DNA of 64,000 nt from an uncultured Myxococcales bacterium (lineage in GTDB: Bacteria > Myxococcota_A > UBA9160 > UBA4427): positions 57,531 to 121,530 of the forward strand of contig CBFDDD010000002.1 of the NCBI GenBank assembly GCA_965603475.1, in the 5' to 3' direction. Shown here one piece after another: positions 22,078 through 55,657 of the stretch. How positions within the stretch are numbered: position 1 is the stretch's first letter; the number at the start of each line of letters is the position of its first letter. Made by a program: the position numbers and the translations under genes. The notes under the pieces are model-generated. The model was not told the origin of the DNA and did not search any database. It was given only the letters and a program-made list of their open reading frames with translations.

Positions 22078-22403
22078 CGGGTCCTTTGCGCGGAGGTGCC
22101 GACCCGCCACGCGTGATCAAATCCAAAGCAGGGCAGTGTTGCGTCGGTGATGACCGCCCCAGCCCACCGGTCTTTTCGGCCCACATCGGGGGTCGCTTGA
22201 CGGCTCGAAATAAGGTTTCCCCCCGGGACAATGATGTGGCAGAAAATTGCCGCACTCGGGTCGATTCCCTTTCCCTGTGTGGGGTTTGATTGCGATGCCG
22301 GGTACGCCTGTGTGATGATCTGGAGAGGCGCCGCCCGCCCCGATCTGTGGAGACACTCTTGCGAAACCCCGACTCGGACGCGTCGCCCCCCAACGCCGAT
22401 TCC

Positions 22404-23627
22404 GTGACTCATCGCCCGCCCCCGACCTTGGCGGATGTGCGTCGCTGGGTGACCGAGGTCGTTGCTGGAGTTCCCCTCGAACGCGAGCAGGCCGAGGCCC
22501 TCGCCGGTGTGCTTCGCGATGATGGCGTCCTGCCGATTCTCTGTGAAGGTGCGCTGGCGATCAAGCGAGCCCAGACGGCTGATCGCGTCACCGTATCGCG
22601 CAACCTGTTCATTCCACTGACGAATCTTTGTCGCAACCGATGCTCGTATTGCACTTTTGCCAAGCTACCCGAGGCGGACGATGCCCATACCTATAACCTC
22701 GAGGAGGTCGCAGAGACGATTCGCGGCGGTGTGGGAACCGGTTGCATCGAGGCGCTGATGTGTCTCGGTGACAAACCCGAGATCGCCTATCGAAGCTACC
22801 GCGAGATGCTCACCAGTCGCGGCATGTCGAGTACGACGGATCTGCTCGTCGAGGCCTGCCGGGTGACGGTCGAGGCGGGCATGTTGCCGCATACCAATGC
22901 CGGGATCCTGTCTAGAGAAGAGATGGCAAGACTTCGTCCATGGAATGCCTCGATGGGTCTGATGCTCGAAACGACGAGTCGCCGGCTGCGTGAAAAAGGC
23001 ATGCCTCATTTTCATGCGCCGGACAAAGAACCGGCTACGCGCATCAAGATGCACGAAGAAGCTGGCGAGTTGAAGATTCCCTTTACGACCGGCATGCTTC
23101 TCGGCATTGGTGAGAATGAGTTAGAGCGCGTCGATACGCTCCTGACCATTCGCGAGTTGGCGCTTCGATATGGTCACATACAGGAAGCGATCATCCAGCC
23201 TTTCCATCCGAAGCCGGATACGAAGATGCATGCGATTCAGTCGCTGGCCGATGATGAAGTCGTGGGTTGGGTGGCGCTGGCGCGACTGATCCTGCCGAGT
23301 GAAGTACACGTTCAGGCGCCTCCGAATCTAGGTTCGGGCATGCTGCCCCGGCTTCTCGGGGCCGGTGTAGATGATTGGGGTGGTGTTTCCCCCGTCACCA
23401 TCGACTTCATCAATCCAGAAGCCCCGTGGCCGGCACTTCGCCAGCTACGCGAGGCGACTGCCGAAGCAGGTTTTCAACTCTTCGAGCGAGGTCCGGTCTA
23501 TCCGGACTGGATTCTCGAACGTCCCGATTTCTTCGACCCGCAGATGCGGGCACTGCTGCCCAGATACGCCAACGACGAGGGCTATGCGCAGCGACCCAAT
23601 AACCAGTCCGACGAGGAGGCCGCTTGA
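22404..23627 (+). CDS. cofG: FO (7,8-didemethyl-8-hydroxy-5-deazariboflavin) synthase subunit CofG
   Basis: SRNLFIPLTNLCRNRCSYCTF (radical SAM CX3CX2C), LPHTNAG, SMGLMLE, QAPPNL, DDWGGVSPVTIDFINPEAPWP. Start uncertain (ORF open from 22290). Confidence 0.9.
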   Translation: MTHRPPPTLADVRRWVTEVVAGVPLEREQAEALAGVLRDDGVLPILCEGALAIKRAQTADRVTVSRNLFIPLTNLCRNRCSYCTFAKLPEADDAHTYNLEEVAETIRGGVGTGCIEALMCLGDKPEIAYRSYREMLTSRGMSSTTDLLVEACRVTVEAGMLPHTNAGILSREEMARLRPWNASMGLMLETTSRRLREKGMPHFHAPDKEPATRIKMHEEAGELKIPFTTGMLLGIGENELERVDTLLTIRELALRYGHIQEAIIQPFHPKPDTKMHAIQSLADDEVVGWVALARLILPSEVHVQAPPNLGSGMLPRLLGAGVDDWGGVSPVTIDFINPEAPWPALRQLREATAEAGFQLFERGPVYPDWILERPDFFDPQMRALLPRYANDEGYAQRPNNQSDEEAA

Positions 23628-23628
23628 A

Positions 23629-24891
23629 ATGTTCGAACAGCTCAACCATGCCGTATCCGATGATGTACGCGATCTTCTCGAAGGTGCCCTGCGCGGCGAT
23701 GAACTTTCGTCGGCCGATGCCGAACGGTTGCTCACGGTCCAGGGGTCCGATTTTCATGCATTGATCGCGGCAGCCGATGTCGCTCGCCAGCAAGATTGTG
23801 GAGACGATGTCAGTTACGTCGTCTGCCGCAATATCAACTTTACGAACGTCTGCTACGTCGGCTGTTCGTTCTGTGGGTTCGCCCGTCACAAGGACGACCC
23901 CATCGATGCGTTCGATCGAAGCCATGCGGAGATTCTCGAAAAGTGTCAGAACGCGATCGAACGTGGTGCGACCGAAGTCTGCATACAGGGTGGTATCCAC
24001 CCGAACAAGACCCACGAACACTATCGTGACATCCTTCTCGCGATCAAAGAGGTCTATCCCGATCTCCACATCCATGCCTACTCGCCCGAAGAGATCGATT
24101 TCGGACATCGAAAGAGCGGGATGAAACTCGAGGAGTATCTTCAGTGGTTGATCGACGCTGGTCTCGGAACGATGCCGGGCACGGCTGCAGAAATTCTCGA
24201 CGATGAGATTCGGGATATTCTGTCACCCAACAAATTGAAGACGGCGCGCTGGGTCGAAATCATCACGGCTGCGCACAAACTCGGATTGAGATCGACCTCG
24301 ACGTTGATGTACGGCCACATCGAGAAACCGCGCCACATCGCCGGACATCTCGACCTGCTACGCGAAATCCAGAAGGAGACCGGAGGTTTTACGGAGTTCG
24401 TACCGCTCGGTTTCATCCACGAACGAAATCTTCTCTACAACCTGCTTGGTTCGCGCCCCGGTCCGTCGATGCAGGAAGATCTTCGGATGATCGCGGTGTC
24501 GCGCCTCTTCCTGCGCCCCTGGATTACGAACATCCAGATCTCGTGGGTGAAAATGGGCCACAAACTCGGTCAGATGGCGCTCTGTGCCGGTGCGAATGAT
24601 TTCGGCGGAACCCTGATGGAAGAGTCGATCAGTCGCGAATCGGGCTCGGATTTTGGTGAAAACACGCCGCCCGAAGAATTTCGGCGATTGATTCGAGAAC
24701 TGGGTCGTACTCCAGTCGAGCGGACGACTCTGTATGACGTCGTCCAGCGCTTCGAAGATCCAGCGCTCGATCCAGAGTCGCTCGAGCCGGTCAAGGAAGT
24801 CGATTTGTCGGGCCCCGCCCGCTCGCGGCGAAAACTCGCGACCGCCGGATCGCCACGATCCACGGATGCGCCGACCGCCCTGGAGGCGTAG
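23629..24891 (+). CDS. cofH: FO synthase subunit CofH
   Basis: RNINFTNVCYVGCSFCGF, MPGTAAEILDD, STLMYGHIE, NIQISWVKMG and GANDFGGTLMEESISR; starts 2 nt after the cofG stop. Confidence 0.88.
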   Translation: MFEQLNHAVSDDVRDLLEGALRGDELSSADAERLLTVQGSDFHALIAAADVARQQDCGDDVSYVVCRNINFTNVCYVGCSFCGFARHKDDPIDAFDRSHAEILEKCQNAIERGATEVCIQGGIHPNKTHEHYRDILLAIKEVYPDLHIHAYSPEEIDFGHRKSGMKLEEYLQWLIDAGLGTMPGTAAEILDDEIRDILSPNKLKTARWVEIITAAHKLGLRSTSTLMYGHIEKPRHIAGHLDLLREIQKETGGFTEFVPLGFIHERNLLYNLLGSRPGPSMQEDLRMIAVSRLFLRPWITNIQISWVKMGHKLGQMALCAGANDFGGTLMEESISRESGSDFGENTPPEEFRRLIRELGRTPVERTTLYDVVQRFEDPALDPESLEPVKEVDLSGPARSRRKLATAGSPRSTDAPTALEA

Positions 24892-24935: not shown

Positions 24936-26738
24936 CTAGTCGCTGGTTGAATCCGAGCGCTTCAAGGTCTGGTCGACCCGCTCCGAGAGCGCTTCGACCT
25001 GATATCGAAGAGGTGCGTTCTCGAGAACGAGTCGCTCGACTCGTGTAATCGCATTGCGCACCGCAGGGTGATCTCGCCCGAGGCTTCGGCCGATTTCGGT
25101 GAAGGACGCGTCGGTATATCGATGCGCGAGGTACATCGCGAGCTGGCGTGGAACGAGGACGTCGCGACGGCGTGAGCGCCCAGCAAGCGCTTCCGGACGT
25201 TTTCCAAAGAAGGCAGCGACGATGCGGACGATCTCGCTCGTTGCGATGGTCTTTGGGGCGAGCGACGATCCCGCGCCCGATTTGAGCGCGATCGCTTCCT
25301 GGATCAGGTCGAGGTCGATGGTTCGACCGAGTAGTGAAGATGTCGTGACGACCTGGATCAGCAAGCTCTCGATGTCACGGACGCTTCCAGCGCTCGATTC
25401 GACGAGCAGATCGAGGCAATCGGCGGGGATATGGACGCCTCCAGCGGCTGCCTTCGAGCGCAGGATGTGTCGCCGCACGAGTGCGTCAGGCCTTTCGAGT
25501 TCGGCAACGAAACCGCGGCCGACCTGGTCACGCATTCGATCGTCGAGCCCCACGAGGTCTCGCGGCGCTTGGTCGCCGGTCAGCAGGACGCTTCCGCCCG
25601 CATCGAGTACGTGCTGAACGGTATGAAAGAGTTCGAGCTGGGTCTTGGCGCGCCCGCTGAAGAACTGGACATCTTCGACGATGAGCATCCCGATTGCACC
25701 GCGATAGCGCCGCTTCCAATCTTCGGAGTTTCCCAGTCGCATCGCCGACACGAACTCACTCGTAAACTGCTCCGCCGACGTATATACGACCCTCGAAGAC
25801 TGCTCGCGCGCGGCACTCGGTGCGAACGCCTGCGCCGTGTGTCCGGCGTGTCCGGGGTGTTGTCCGTGCCGTCTCGCTTCAGCCGCCGTCGCGCGAGCGA
25901 GATGGGTCTTGCCCATGCCAGAGTCGCCGCCGAGATAGAGCTGGTTGAGGCTGCGCTGTCGCCGTCGAGCAAGCGCCAGGGCCGCTTCGCGCGCGAGGGC
26001 GTTGCAGGGTCCGACAATAAAGCTCTCGAAGCTGAAAGGCAGTTCCTGCTGGCCGGCGCCGTTCTCGGTATCGAGTCCAGAGTCGCTTCGGGAGTTGCTT
26101 CCGGATTTGCGAGGGTGACGGGCTCTCGATCGCGAGTCGCTGCGGGTCGTTCCCGCGCGCTTTCGACTCTCAGGTTCGGGGACTGCATGAAGGTTGAGCG
26201 TTGCGGTTTCATCCGCTGTCACGATCAGGGGCTTTGCAGCAGATCCCGTCGTTCGATCGTCACCCGGGACGAGACTCGATTCGCTCGGTCTGGCCTGCAG
26301 GGCTCCTCCGCTTGCTATCGCGGCCTGCGTGACGCCGTAGGCAGACCCGGCGCGCGTCGAAAGCGCGTTCGACGCGACACCGCGCATTGGCATAGCCGTG
26401 GAAGTCTTCATGGATCGTTCGCGCTCGCCAGGTTGCCGGAACTCGATCGTCAGCCCACTTGCCGCACCGAACTCTTTCATGCATAGCAATTCGATCGAGC
26501 CCTTCTCCGCCCCAATCGATCCGGAGTTGGAACGAGCGGCGTGCCAACAATCGCGAATCACGTCGGCGTAGTGATTGCGAACACGATCGCGATGAAATGA
26601 ACTCGGACACCCGAGTACGACATGTCCGTCCGCCACCTTGACGGCAAGCGGTGCGATCCATGCGTCGAACGCAAATTCGGGGATTTCATCCTGGAGACGA
26701 CGCAAAGCGTCGCCCCAGACCTTGGGCGAAAAGGTCAT
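24936..26738 (-). CDS. dnaA: Divergent DnaA-family replication initiator (probable paralogue)
   Basis: Domain I (VW..AL..LQ...FDAWIAPL); long low-complexity domain II; FSFESFIVGPCN; Walker A GDSGMGKT; EDVQFF; SVRDIES; domain IV PRQLAMYLA...IG..GRDH. Several conserved residues are substituted (see findings). Confidence 0.85.
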   Translation of the reverse strand: MTFSPKVWGDALRRLQDEIPEFAFDAWIAPLAVKVADGHVVLGCPSSFHRDRVRNHYADVIRDCWHAARSNSGSIGAEKGSIELLCMKEFGAASGLTIEFRQPGERERSMKTSTAMPMRGVASNALSTRAGSAYGVTQAAIASGGALQARPSESSLVPGDDRTTGSAAKPLIVTADETATLNLHAVPEPESRKRAGTTRSDSRSRARHPRKSGSNSRSDSGLDTENGAGQQELPFSFESFIVGPCNALAREAALALARRRQRSLNQLYLGGDSGMGKTHLARATAAEARRHGQHPGHAGHTAQAFAPSAAREQSSRVVYTSAEQFTSEFVSAMRLGNSEDWKRRYRGAIGMLIVEDVQFFSGRAKTQLELFHTVQHVLDAGGSVLLTGDQAPRDLVGLDDRMRDQVGRGFVAELERPDALVRRHILRSKAAAGGVHIPADCLDLLVESSAGSVRDIESLLIQVVTTSSLLGRTIDLDLIQEAIALKSGAGSSLAPKTIATSEIVRIVAAFFGKRPEALAGRSRRRDVLVPRQLAMYLAHRYTDASFTEIGRSLGRDHPAVRNAITRVERLVLENAPLRYQVEALSERVDQTLKRSDSTSD

Positions 26739-27339
26739 TCAAACCAACTTGGAATAGAGTTGTTGAAAATCGAATCCAGAAAAGAATCGGCCCGAACTAG
26801 GTCAATCCGCTCGAACGAGGTCCCGAGGATCCCGCCCGATTTGGCATAGACACAGGATTCATGACTGGACCGACGATCTCCTCCTTGCCGATCAATTCGA
26901 TCGAGCAGGCGAAGTTCGAGGAAGGGCACCGCGGGTGAGCGGGGCTTACCGGCCTCAGATTCCAGGGTCTTGAGCTGATTTCGGGGGATTTCAAGAGGTT
27001 CAAGGGGGTCTCGCTAGATTTGAAGTCGAATCTTTTCGAGCAGCTGCGAGTAAACCATTTGTCTTCGCGATTGGCAATCATCTCCGATACGAAACGGGGA
27101 AGGCAGGTGACACATTTTCTAAACAGTCCAGATCGAGCCCAAAACACCTATTAACCGCTGTTTGCAATTCAATTTCCGGTGTGAATCAAGCATGTTCGGC
27201 GAATTTGCGAAGGCGCTTTCGACTCTGGTCCAGCGCAAAATGAACCAGTGTTTTCAGTATCTATATCGTACATATGCGCGTTATTTTGAAACTTAGCGTG
27301 AGAATGCTCGATTTTACGAAGCGTCAGACAATCGAGGAT

Positions 27340-28014
27340 TCAATTCGGCAGAGAAGTCGAGCCCGGCTCGCCCGCTGCGACCTCGGCGAGCCTGAAGCGC
27401 AACAAATCACCCATGATTTCGAACCGGGCAACGATTGAGTTGGCTTCGAGCAGTCGTTGACGTTCGATTGGCTCGAAGGCGAGCGACTGTGTGAGTGCAT
27501 TGATGAGACGTGCAGGTTCGAGTCGTTCGAAAGCCGCGATGGCCGGATCTTCTGCACCACTTCGACCGAGTCGCTGCACGAGACGTTCGAGATATTGGAG
27601 CAACTCGCGACGCCTTTGCTCGAGCAACTCGAGTGCTTTGGCATCCGGCGGCGTTTCGTCCAGCAACAACTCGACGCGTGCCGAGCGGTAGAGACGGTCT
27701 TCCCGACGTGCTTCTTCGTTGAGAATACGAAACCGGCTCATTCCGAGCAGTAGAATCTGAACAGTGCCGTCCGACTGTTCCTGGGCATGAACGACTCGAC
27801 CGAGACAGCCGATGTCGAAAGTGGCTGGATCACCTGTCATTTGATCGACACAATCAGGGCGTACGGTCACCATTCCGATCTGGTTCGAGCCCGCGAGTAC
27901 GTCCCGAGCCATCTGGAGATAGCGCGGCTCGAAGAGCCGGAGGGGAACCGAGATCTCGGGCAACAGCACGACATCAGCAAGCGGAAAGAGCGGCAGTGAT
28001 TCGATCTGATTCAT
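27340..28014 (-). CDS. Stand-alone Lon protease N-terminal (substrate-binding) domain protein
   Basis: LPLFPLADVVLLPEISVPLRLFEPRYLQM, IGCLGRV and GMSRFRI; no AAA+ or protease domain. Confidence 0.85.
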   Translation of the reverse strand: MNQIESLPLFPLADVVLLPEISVPLRLFEPRYLQMARDVLAGSNQIGMVTVRPDCVDQMTGDPATFDIGCLGRVVHAQEQSDGTVQILLLGMSRFRILNEEARREDRLYRSARVELLLDETPPDAKALELLEQRRRELLQYLERLVQRLGRSGAEDPAIAAFERLEPARLINALTQSLAFEPIERQRLLEANSIVARFEIMGDLLRFRLAEVAAGEPGSTSLPN

Positions 28015-28100: not shown

Positions 28101-28577
28101 TTGGATCGCCGAACGAAGAAGGAACTTCTGGGCCGTCTGGAAGTCGATGCGCTGCGTATCTGCGCGCGCTTTCGGCTGCGCTATCGAGTACTCGAAGCGG
28201 AGCGGGCCAATGTAAAGAGCCGATACGGCATTTGCTTTTCAGATGGCACGATTCGGATTCGTCTGCGCCATGCCACTTCCGGCAATCCGCTCAAATACTC
28301 GAGCCTCGTGAATACATTGTGCCACGAGCTCGCGCATCTCAAGTATTTCAATCACGGTCCCGGATTCCAGACCTTCTACGCTGAAATTCTCGGTTGGGCG
28401 CGACGCGAGAGCATCTACCAACCCCGGGCGCTGAAAACGACTGCAAAGCGAATTGAAACGGACGCAATCATTCCCTTGGTACAAGGGCAGGAGGCCGTTC
28501 GGTTGACAGTCGATGAATCAGTGAACGCTGCGACGGACCAAGCCGCCTCAATGGGCCAACTCGAACTCTTCGAATGA
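28101..28577 (+). CDS. Zinc metallopeptidase, WLM/YgjP/SprT-like
   Basis: TLCHELAHLKYFNHGPGF (HExxH plus downstream His); preceded by IRIRLR...KYSS. Confidence 0.75.
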   Translation: MDRRTKKELLGRLEVDALRICARFRLRYRVLEAERANVKSRYGICFSDGTIRIRLRHATSGNPLKYSSLVNTLCHELAHLKYFNHGPGFQTFYAEILGWARRESIYQPRALKTTAKRIETDAIIPLVQGQEAVRLTVDESVNAATDQAASMGQLELFE

Positions 28578-53132: not shown

Positions 53133-55244
53133 ATGACCGCCATCAATGAAGTCACCGACCTTCGCCTCGAAGGCGACATCGCCGTACTCACCCTCGACTC
53201 GCCTCCCGTGAACGCCCTCTCCGCCAACGTGCGGACAGGACTCTTCGAGGGCATTCAGGCCGCCGATGCAAATGACGATGCTCGCGCGATCGTGTTGATC
53301 TGCGAGGGACGTACCTTCATCGCTGGCGCGGACATCACGGAGTTCGGCGGCAAGGGACCGGCCGGTGCCTCCCTCACCGACGTGCAGTCGGCCATGCAGA
53401 ACGCGAAGAAGCCTGTGATCGCCGCGATTCACGGTACCGCCCTCGGTGGCGGACTCGAAGTCGCGCTCTGTGCACATTTTCGCGTTGCGGTGCCTTCCGC
53501 CCGATGCGGGCTCCCCGAAGTGAACCTCGGTCTGCTGCCCGGTGCGGGCGGAACCCAGAGACTTCCGCGCATCGTGGGTGTCGAAACGGCCCTGGCCATG
53601 ATGACGAGCGGACGACACGTCCCGGCGGCGGAGTGTCTCGAACTCGGACTCGTTGACGAATTGGTCGACGAAGGCGGCCTGCTCGAAGGTACCCTTGCTT
53701 TCGCAAACAAGGTTCTCGCCGAGGGCCGGCCACTTCGCAAGGTCGACGAGTCGAACGAGAAGGTCGAAGCGGCGCGCGGTCAACCCGAGATCTTCGAGAA
53801 GTTCCGCGCTGGCATCGCACGCAAGACGCGAGGCTTCCTCGCCCCGGAGTACAATATCCGCTGCATCGAGGCCGCGGTCAACGAACCTTTCGATGAAGGA
53901 CTCGCGACCGAAGGTCGGCTCTTCATGGAACTCATGACCGGAGAGCAATCCGCCGCACAACGTTATGCGTTCTTCGCCGAACGCGAAGTCTGGAAGATTC
54001 CGGACGTCCCGCGCGACACGCCGCAGATTCCGATCGAGCGCGTCGGGATCGTCGGAGCCGGCACGATGGGCGGTGGCATCGCGATGAATTTTGCGAATAT
54101 CGGCCTTCCGGTCATTCTCGTCGAACGAGAGCAGGAGGCCCTCGATCGCGGCCTCGGCGTCGTTCGAGCCAACTACGAACGAAGCGCCAAGCGCGGACGG
54201 CTCTCCGCGGAAGACGTCGAAGCCCGAATGAGTCTATTGACCGGATCGGTCGAGATCGAAGATCTGGCCGACTGCGATCTCGTCATCGAGGCGGTCTTCG
54301 AGAACATGGCCGTCAAGAAGGGCATCTTCGCCGACTTCGATCGTGTGATGAAGCCGGGGGCAATCCTGGCGACGAATACCTCGGCCCTCGACATCGACGA
54401 AATCGCGAGCGCGACAAAGCGCCCCGAGTCCGTCATCGGTCTGCATTTCTTCAGCCCGGCGAATGTGATGCGGCTCGTGGAAGTGGTCCGAGCCGATCAC
54501 ACCTCGAAGGAGGTCATCGCGACTTCGATGGCGCTGGCCAAGCGCATAGGCAAGATGGCGGCCCTGGTCGGCGTCTGTCGTGGCTTCGTCGGAAACCGCA
54601 TTCTCGCACCGCGTCAGCAACAGGCCAACGAACTCCTGCTCGAAGGCGCGATGCCCTGGGACGTCGACCGCGTGCTCTACGACTTTGGTCTCCCGATGGG
54701 CCCCTTCGCAATGAGCGACCTCGCGGGGCTCGACATCGGCTGGAGCAAGGAGACATCGAAAAGCGAAACGCTTCGTGACGTACTCTGCGAAATGGATCGT
54801 CGAGGCCAGAAGAATGGCAAAGGCTTCTACGACTACGGGGCCGACCGCAGTGCCAGCCCTTCACCCGAGGTCGAAAAGATCATTCGCGATTTTGCGGCGG
54901 GCAGAGGTGGCGGTAGCGGTAGCGGTAGCGGTAAAGAGCCGCGCGCGATCTCGGACACGGAAATCCTCGAGCGCTGCGTGTATCCGATGATCAACGAAGG
55001 GTTCAAGATCCTGGCCGAGGGAAAGGCGATTCGCGCTTCGGACATCGATGTCATCTGGGTCAATGGCTACGGATGGCCGGTCTACCGCGGCGGTCCGATG
55101 TTCTACGGGGAACAGGTCGGACTCGATCGCGTACTCGATCGTCTACGGGAACTCCAGAAGACCCACGGCGACGCCTTTGCGCCCGCGCCGCTGCTCGAGC
55201 AGATCGTGGCCGAGGGCAAGAGCTATCGAGAGTTGGGGTACTAG
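53133..55244 (+). CDS. Enoyl-CoA hydratase / 3-hydroxyacyl-CoA dehydrogenase bifunctional enzyme
   Basis: [44 protein letters not shown] and HFFSPANVM; GGAG RBS before ATG 53133. Confidence 0.93.
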
Positions 55245-55268
55245 GCTGCGGAGTTGTCCTGTCGATTA

Positions 55269-55657
55269 GGGTGCCAGGTGGCGCGGGTGGTAAAGCCCGG
55301 CGCTCGCCGGTCGGCTCCGGCGGGTGTTCCCGCATGATGCATCGAGGCGCGCAGTTACCGCCTGCGCCTCCAGGCTCCCACCGAGCTTTCCCACCCGCGC
55401 CACTCGGACGTTTGTGCCAGGACATTTCCGTAGGCTGGTTTTTGCGTGGCGATCGATTGCGCTTGGCCTTCGCATTCTGTTGTGGGCGAGGCTGGGGATA
55501 TCTCGATTCGAAGGCGGGTCGAGTGGCGCGGGTGGGGGAGCCTGACGGGAGCCTGGAGGCGCAGGCGGTGGCAATCAGCCCCGATGCATCATGCGGGAGC
55601 GACCGCCGTAGCCGACCGGCGAGCGGTAGGGTCCACCACCCGCGCCACCTGGCACCC
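55269..55657. repeat. Two inverted 138-bp copies of a structured palindromic element (REPIN/ERIC/MITE-like)
   Basis: 55269-55406 and the reverse complement of 55520-55657 align without gaps at 114/138 nt (hand count); the outer 23 bp are a perfect inverted repeat; each copy is itself closed by a 13-bp stem. Confidence 0.9.

Follow-up and report, generated by a model that had tools for sequence, protein, structure and literature searches.

In the replication initiator DnaA, one protomer senses the ATP bound by its neighbour through the arginine finger, a contact regarded as mechanistically essential, on which the ATP/ADP switch that sets the timing of initiation is based. The related Hda/HdaA proteins are short, approximately 230 amino acids (aa), and consist of the AAA+ domain alone, lacking domains I and IV and carrying a clamp-binding motif, while initiation independent of DnaA has been reported for some cyanobacteria. 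The arginine finger has been termed 'invariant' (PMC8287927), and the same source describes DnaA proteins from Helicobacter pylori, Synechococcus elongatus and Deinococcus radiodurans that unwind origins with ADP as well as with ATP, and records that some bacteria initiate independently of DnaA. The residues of domain IV that contact bases are listed as R399, P423, D433, H434, T435 and H439, most of which are absent from Thermotoga maritima DnaA, which recognises a 12-bp box (PMC7561715); positions 435 and 438–439 vary with box specificity (PMC5043019). Our literature searches turned up no naturally occurring DnaA orthologue that lacks the arginine finger, nor relevant work on the DnaA of Myxococcota. 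Here we describe a dnaA gene in a 64,000-nucleotide stretch (hereafter, the window) of the genome of an uncultured Myxococcales bacterium (GCA_965603475.1, contig CBFDDD010000002.1, positions 57,531 to 121,530). Its product has lost the finger and is most probably the working chromosomal replication initiator of a lineage whose initiator gene has left the origin.

The window belongs to a contig of 167 kb (C2) within an assembly of 5.19 Mb, which comprises 208 contigs and has a completeness of 92.7%; dnaN lies on a separate contig (C17). Residues were assigned by HMMER alignment to solved DnaA chains from Bacillus subtilis (8btg), T. maritima (2z4r), Aquifex aeolicus (1l8q) and Escherichia coli (1j1v and 2e0g), and the coordinates of box VII, the recognition helix and an insertion in the ATPase domain were verified through translation. 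The gene and its parts occupy the following positions of the window.

24936..26738, reverse strand: dnaA, 600 aa, ATG start (open reading frame and Pfam; the sole PF00308/PF08299 match in the genome)
26541..26738, reverse strand: domain I, aa 1–66 (Pfam DnaA_N, 53.6 bits, and alignment to E. coli 2e0g)
26040..26540, reverse strand: domain II, a low-complexity linker, approximately aa 67–233 (no family match between DnaA_N and Bac_DnaA)
25269..26039, reverse strand: domain III, AAA+ (alignment to B. subtilis 8btg and motif tables)
25794..25862, reverse strand: 23-aa insertion QHPGHAGHTAQAFAPSAAREQSS, aa 293–315, after the Walker A helix
25509..25547, reverse strand: box VII, LDDRMRDQVGRGF (Gln405 codon at 25524–25526)
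25050..25076, reverse strand: recognition helix of domain IV, RDHPAVRNA (alignment to E. coli 1j1v and translation)

The four-domain architecture of DnaA is present in full, from DnaA_N through a linker and the AAA+ domain (Bac_DnaA) to Bac_DnaA_C, and in this respect the initial annotation of the window, which had described a 600-aa reading frame with all four domains, is borne out by both the open reading frame and Pfam. DnaA_N is matched at aa 6–66, Bac_DnaA as two stretches and Bac_DnaA_C at aa 502–567, with scores of 53.6, 129.1 and 69.9 bits respectively, each over its cut-off. The Bac_DnaA match is split because of the 23-aa insertion, which is restricted to the genus. Domain II had been called very long, and rightly so, since it extends for approximately 170 aa without a family match; the whole protein ranges from 583 to 697 aa among relatives. 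By comparison with 8btg the ATP pocket is kept, that is, Walker A (GDSGMGKT), Walker B (IVEDV), the sensor I Asp (TGDQ) and the sensor II Arg (SVRDIE). Domain I keeps the equivalents of E. coli W6 and F46, the equivalent of E21 being Ala (alignment to 2e0g). For the binding of single-stranded DNA (ssDNA), we take the relevant positions of an initiator to be K222 in B. subtilis, and V211 and R245 in E. coli. V330 and R363 of the window protein align with ssDNA-binding I190 and K222 of B. subtilis 8btg, and I190 has an ssDNA-binding role in that organism (PMC8287927). Identity as Hda or HdaA was considered and rejected, given a length of 600 aa with domains I and IV and a score of only 68 bits against TIGR03420, the cut-off of which is 194.8 bits.

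This gene is the only DnaA of its genome and not a spare copy. PF00308 and PF08299 each match once in the assembly, in both cases the window dnaA, and a tblastn search of the same genome with the dnaN-linked copies of a sister order (described below) found only the window dnaA; no Hda-like protein was found in this genome. Relatives were sampled twice. Each of 40 relatives, comprising 24 of the same genus and 16 from other families of the order, had one full-length DnaA, the additional matches being IstB-like frames of 250–380 aa, and a wider draw of 49 genomes of the order, closed and near-closed genomes of one or two contigs among them, contained exactly one DnaA in 49/49. Within the genus, domains III–IV are 63–100% identical. 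The initial annotation had proposed a second, non-initiating DnaA beside a true initiator, and had suggested looking for another canonical dnaA next to dnaN. For this genome and its order that proposal fails on the copy number just given, and the slot adjoining dnaN holds no dnaA.

The classical origin neighbourhood lies on C17, where the atp operon, parB, parA, rsmG, jag, yidC, rnpA and rpmH, on one strand, are separated by a 508-bp spacer from dnaN-gyrB-gyrA on the other, with no dnaA among them. GC skew on this contig is negative from 1 to 55 kb and positive past approximately 58 kb, and G+C reaches a minimum of 0.51 at 55–56 kb. Skew on C2 is positive over all 167 kb without a switch at dnaA, and therefore there is no origin at dnaA; the gene is the sole DnaA and is seated away from the skew origin, the switch falling between rpmH and dnaN. 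These two genes are divergent neighbours in 30/30 relatives, and a search of the rpmH-dnaN spacers for the remnant of a dnaN-linked dnaA returned none (best E-value 0.9). In nine genomes of the same genus with both genes on one contig, dnaA and dnaN are 80–127 kb apart, and 248 kb, 274 kb and 1.8 Mb separate them in three genomes of the order that are closed or nearly so; the cumulative skew minimum in the same-genus or same-order genome G003 is at dnaN, not at dnaA. The origin would accordingly be placed outside the window, as follows.

C17, approximately 54930–55600 (locus L063): predicted oriC, in the rpmH-dnaN spacer (skew switch and local G+C minimum)

Box-trio-AT-rich modules, as defined in PMC8287927, were recognised here only on inspection of the 135 nt proximal to dnaN, which we surveyed in 30 relatives with shuffled sequences as the comparison. 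The predicted oriC on C17 reads TTGTCCGAT-CGG-CTGACACTT-T-CTACTACTACTCTTATTC, and then passes into AT-rich DNA. A T[TC]TGTC[CG] box stands 69–76 nt before the dnaN start in 26/30 genomes, and after it come a second, TTGTCAC-like box, runs of NTN triplets on the top strand, and AT-rich DNA. The typical triplet run, CTACTACTAC, is 3'-GAT-5' on the bottom strand, which is the DnaA-trio consensus. A box with at least five NTN triplets was present at 12/30 loci compared to 0.03 in shuffles, and YTGTCS occurred 80 times in the 135-nt stretches before dnaN where approximately 8.5 were expected. The composite pattern is found five times in the 5.2 Mb of the window's own genome, and (CTA)3 only in the copy at C17:55519. 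As a control we used a Bacillus with a DnaA 97% identical to that of B. subtilis, where the dnaA-dnaN spacer reads TTATCCACA-TATTCACAA-GCC-CTACTAGTACTTCTACGA-AT-rich-dnaN; the order and orientation of elements are like those of the C17 module, and the distance from box start to first trio is 21 nt in the control and 22 nt on C17.

The predicted boxes of the window's order at the module position are TTTTGTCCGAT/CTGTCAC; the conserved boxes are of TTGTCC type and not TTATCCACA. Canonical DnaA boxes (TTATCCACA or TTGTCCACA, with no more than one mismatch) are not enriched in the window (one observed, 3.7 expected). A new binding motif, which the initial annotation had envisaged, is plausible, given the predicted TTGTCC-type boxes; the non-initiating role as a transcription factor with which it had been coupled is not supported. 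A plain k-mer repeat search of the rpmH-dnaN spacers returned mostly conserved promoter or ribosome-binding-site elements in single copy, and revealed no clear family of 8- or 9-mers. The same spacers, in alignment A1 (columns ~315–360 and 465–480), contain the invariant blocks GGAAGCGCG.GAGCTTACC ... CTGTCAATG and CGTGTTACTCTG. On its reverse strand, the first block pair reads TTGACAG-N17-GGTAAGCT, and this is probably the rpmH promoter.

Alignment with the solved chains shows where the window protein departs from canonical DnaA, and each of the changes noted in the initial annotation (ED in Walker B, Gln at R285, an altered helix) is confirmed by it. Walker B is IVEDVQ compared to LIDDIQ in B. 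subtilis, so that ED stands for DD. Box VII is LDDRMRDQVGRGF compared to LEDRLRSRFEWGL in B. subtilis, an alignment that makes Q405 the equivalent of E. coli R285, the arginine finger, and retains the equivalent of R281. The recognition helix, RDHPAVRNA, differs from the RDHTTVLHA of E. coli by T435P, T436A, L438R and H439N, and a further change upstream of it, P423 to Thr, is added here to the earlier list. Of the six base-contact residues, R399, D433 and H434 are kept, and P423, T435 and H439 are changed to T, P and N respectively.

These substitutions are lineage-wide, an outcome that the initial annotation had itself named as a refutation of its proposal. In a survey of 120 homologues (63–100% identity), ED in Walker B, a residue other than Arg at 285 (nearly always Gln) and a DHP[AS]VRNA helix are almost invariant. 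The 16 other families of the order have ED in 15/16, and their R285-equivalent is Arg in six, Gln in five, His in two, and Thr, Ile or Leu in three. For a broad comparison we searched 1.84 billion cluster representatives and tabulated the matches by position, taking as ordinary DnaAs a set of 113 diverse representatives less than 42% identical, and as the clade of the window protein six close representatives and 26 more distant members. The R285-equivalent is Arg in 110/113 ordinary DnaAs and Gln in 6/6 close representatives, with Q14/R9/T2/L1 among the more distant members, while Pro at the T435-equivalent occurs in 0/113 ordinary DnaAs compared to 22/32 clade members, close and distant combined. 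A maximum-likelihood tree recovers the clade with a support of 99 in the Shimodaira–Hasegawa-like approximate likelihood ratio test (SH-aLRT); basal members keep Arg at the 285-equivalent, and the tree forces at least six changes between Arg and non-Arg at this position.

The surroundings of dnaA on C2 are conserved in their turn, and consist of the following features.

27340..28014, reverse strand: LON substrate-binding-domain-only (LonN) protein, 224 aa (Pfam PF02190, 118.5 bits)
22290..24891, forward strand: cofG and cofH, the FO synthase radical-SAM pair, convergent on dnaA (Pfam Radical_SAM, CofH_C)
28101..28577, forward strand: WLM/SprT-like metallopeptidase-domain protein, divergent from the LonN gene (synteny: part of the conserved locus)
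26739..27339, reverse strand: spacer upstream of dnaA, 601 bp, G+C 0.49, presumed dnaA promoter/leader

The neighbours had been named before as cofH and a Lon-N gene, and not dnaN, recF, gyrB or rpmH, which is correct, and cofG adjoins too. All 21 genus- or family-level loci keep the LonN→dnaA←cofH arrangement, and most of the order's other families share it. Across the whole class the LonN gene is the co-oriented upstream neighbour of dnaA, and cofG and cofH are likewise its downstream neighbours.

A sister order of the same class (family code f13) has two full-length DnaA-like genes in 27/32 genomes, and three in one. The two genes are 38–93 kb apart (loci L236–L249; for example, at 2.11 and 2.15 Mb of G046:C3), and we fetched both copies from seven genomes. 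Copy L sits in a LonN→dnaA←cofH←cofG locus, as the window gene does, and is 40–44% identical to the window protein; it has all three Pfam domains, a TIGR00362 score of 343.0 bits, an ED Walker B and intact sensors, and it combines a box VII of LDxKLxSRMASGL, with the arginine finger in 7/7, with an RDH[TS]SV[IM]YA helix. Copy N occupies the ancestral slot, divergent from rpmH and followed by dnaN (for example, G046:C3 at ~2.11 Mb), with 25–29% identity to the window protein. DnaA_N is not matched in it, PF00308 reaches only 81 bits, sensor I is lost, box VII reads either LIAPLHEQL or LIEPLRRRL, and four of the seven copies have lost the sensor II Arg; its DNA helix is canonical (HHTTALHS, with P423). 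In the tree, the L copies branch at the base of the window clade (support 100) and the N copies form a clade of their own, the origin of which could not be placed because of a branch of 1.6 substitutions with support of 57/47. Copy N is absent from genomes of the window's order. Near-canonical boxes, TTTTCCAGA and TTTCCACAG, make up the homologous origin module in the sister order, and GGTGGATAA-type boxes are found at the end of dnaA-N. Scores for PF00308 are 185–240 bits in other classes of the phylum, which have one DnaA each, compared to 120–171 bits in the window's order.

The initial annotation was thus right that two DnaA lineages exist, at the level of the class, and that this gene belongs to the one not linked to dnaN; but the degenerate copy is the dnaN-linked one. 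We infer that the ancestor of the class already relied on the LonN-linked gene for initiation and that the dnaN-linked copy was later lost in the window's order; in the sister order, the L and N copies might act as a two-part initiator. The class appears to record the displacement of an initiator, with a complete off-origin copy and a decaying origin copy together in one order, and the latter lost in the other. The origin boxes and the residues that read DNA appear to have changed together.

In the mechanism that we propose, DnaA would recognise the TTGTCC-type boxes upstream of dnaN with a domain IV that has been re-tuned (P423T, T435P, H439N), and from these boxes would extend, through its AAA+ domain, onto the (3'-GAT-5')n trios and so open the origin, the opening taking place without the canonical contact between Arg285 and the gamma-phosphate. 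No replacement Arg is conserved and two representatives lack any Arg in box VII; assembly without reading of the gamma-phosphate is therefore favoured, and filament assembly that is largely insensitive to ATP versus ADP is the mechanism we prefer, if tentatively. Were assembly insensitive in this way, control would have to come from the amount or turnover of DnaA, and it is a matter of speculation that the Lon-N-domain neighbour takes part. The combined scenario seems doubtful when all of its parts are required at once: that a relocated paralogue replaced the initiator, that its finger-free filament is blind to ATP versus ADP, that a new TTGTCCG-type box co-evolved with P423T, T435P and H439N, and that the level of DnaA is set by the Lon-N neighbour and not by hydrolysis of the kind seen in regulatory inactivation of DnaA (RIDA). 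A sole DnaA without the finger across an order of free-living bacteria, with the box-trio origin kept, nevertheless provides a natural experiment on the need for this contact.

The nearest competitor to ATP/ADP-insensitive assembly is a shifted finger, whereby the ATP-dependent filament is intact and R401 (E. coli R281), R403 (position 283) or R408 contacts the gamma-phosphate in trans. With the ATP pocket intact, R401 and R403 present in the window protein and most of the genus, and at least one Arg among positions 281, 283 and 285 in nearly every member of the order, this is a possible account, although a rather questionable one. No one substitute Arg is conserved clade-wide; in many families position 283 is occupied by A, C, G or V, and an Arg at 408 occurs only within the genus; two representatives (P0128 and P0141) have no Arg in box VII; a scan for co-varying basic residues gave no convincing result; and 76/113 ordinary DnaAs combine R285 with a residue at position 283 that is already basic.

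A more radical explanation is that DnaA is kept only as a DNA-binding regulator, the chromosome being initiated independently of DnaA and the losses at the finger and sensor II representing decay of the initiator function. Retention of DnaA in 49/49 genomes of the order, at 63–100% identity in domains III–IV within the genus, makes this improbable, as do the Walker A Lys, the ssDNA-binding positions and the Trp and Phe of domain I, all of which are kept, and the presence across the order, at the skew switch, of a box, trio and AT-rich module at a fixed distance from dnaN; the lability of the finger position, with its six or more changes, the Thr at sensor II in one subclade, and the lack of a canonical DnaA-box cluster and of an Hda-like protein in the genome nonetheless speak in its favour. 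The least probable of the alternatives, by far, is that of the initial annotation, in which the canonical initiator is encoded elsewhere in the genome and the window gene is a second, non-initiating paralogue that modulates it in a dominant-negative manner or serves as a transcription factor. The gene is indeed away from dnaN with no skew switch beside it, its finger is lost and its recognition helix altered, it scores below the TIGR00362 cut-off in an incomplete assembly, and the sister order does have two DnaA genes. Yet no second PF00308 or PF08299 match exists in the genome itself or in the 49 genomes of the order, single-contig ones included, the rpmH-dnaN slot is empty in 30/30 relatives without a pseudogene remnant, and in the sister order it is the dnaN-linked copy that is degenerate and the orthologue of the window gene that is complete.

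Several observations weigh against the conclusion that the window DnaA is the working initiator. The organisms are uncultured, represented by metagenome-assembled genomes (MAGs), and all functional readings come from sequence; the window's own assembly is 92.7% complete in 208 contigs, with dnaA and dnaN on different contigs. The protein scores 300 bits against TIGR00362, the NCBIfam equivalog model, for which the cut-off is 343.9 bits. In one subclade of the genus (relatives P0101, P0104–P0111, P0117 and P0118; loci L019, L021 and L022) the sensor II Arg is Thr (ASVTEVESL) in addition to the missing arginine finger, loci L021 and L022 have Ala at the R281-equivalent as well, and it is possible that the ATPase cycle there is decaying altogether. 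The scan for a basic residue co-varying with the loss of R285, which might have accounted for the cohesion of the filament, produced no convincing column, with too few independent contrasts. Origin-type boxes upstream of dnaA, which would be a sign of autoregulation, are not enriched (12 observed, 24 expected), and in the closed order-level genome G031 the skew around dnaA and dnaN is too weak to place the origin. Clusters of more than three canonical boxes per 600 bp are found neither genome-wide nor in the rpmH-dnaN spacer, and this absence fits a DnaA-independent origin equally; the boxes that we place at the origin are themselves predictions from conservation and architecture.

Some features of the locus and of the records may be noted in addition. 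GATTCGA, often as GATTCGAA, occurs 24 times in 20 LonN-dnaA spacers (26739–27339 and its homologues at L024–L044) compared to 1.3 in shuffles, and could be a candidate regulator site in the dnaA leader. Enrichment of GANTC (CcrM-type) in the leader was examined and rejected, the motif being frequent genome-wide and the leader falling only in the top 11.5% of windows. Downstream of dnaA, the longest cofH frame starts at 23371 and cofG ends at 23627, an overlap of approximately 250 nt, and the true start of cofH is probably near 23620. NCBI names some of the proteins of relatives 'DnaA/Hda family protein' or 'hypothetical', with the consequence that genomes of the lineage can look as though they had no dnaA. 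The records of relatives are labelled as MAGs of Myxococcota or Deltaproteobacteria; MAGs of the lineage at loci L025, L028, L037, L038 and L039 were deposited as 'Spirochaetaceae bacterium', which looks like a taxonomic mislabel. G+C is approximately 0.70 in G003 and G031, which are assigned to the same genus or order, compared to 0.60 in the window's genome.

Set beside canonical DnaA, as represented by E. coli, B. subtilis (8BTG), A. aeolicus (1L8Q/2HCB) and the TIGR00362 model, the window protein has the same four domains, Walker A, sensor I Asp and sensor II Arg, the same ssDNA-binding positions, the Trp and Phe of domain I, and R399, D433 and H434 of domain IV; like canonical DnaA it is encoded in a single copy, and the predicted module of boxes, trios and AT-rich DNA upstream of dnaN recalls incC of B. 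subtilis. It is unlike canonical DnaA in having Gln for the finger, an ED Walker B, three of six base contacts changed and a 23-aa insertion in the AAA+ domain, in a gene that lies off the origin, in a score under the TIGR00362 cut-off, and in predicted boxes of TTGTCC type. T. maritima DnaA (2Z4R) is a bona fide initiator whose helix is likewise of the form H-P-x-V (SHPVVVDS); unlike the window protein, it keeps the arginine finger (DRLVSRF) and a DD Walker B. Copy N of the sister order belongs to the same class and has a DnaA ATPase and domain IV, but is linked to dnaN and has no recognisable domain I. The window DnaA has lost the finger residue itself, which is, as far as is known, still present in the DnaA proteins of H. 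pylori, S. elongatus and D. radiodurans. The behaviour of these three proteins in the BUS strand-separation assay (PMC8287927) provides the precedent for a weak dependence on the gamma-phosphate.

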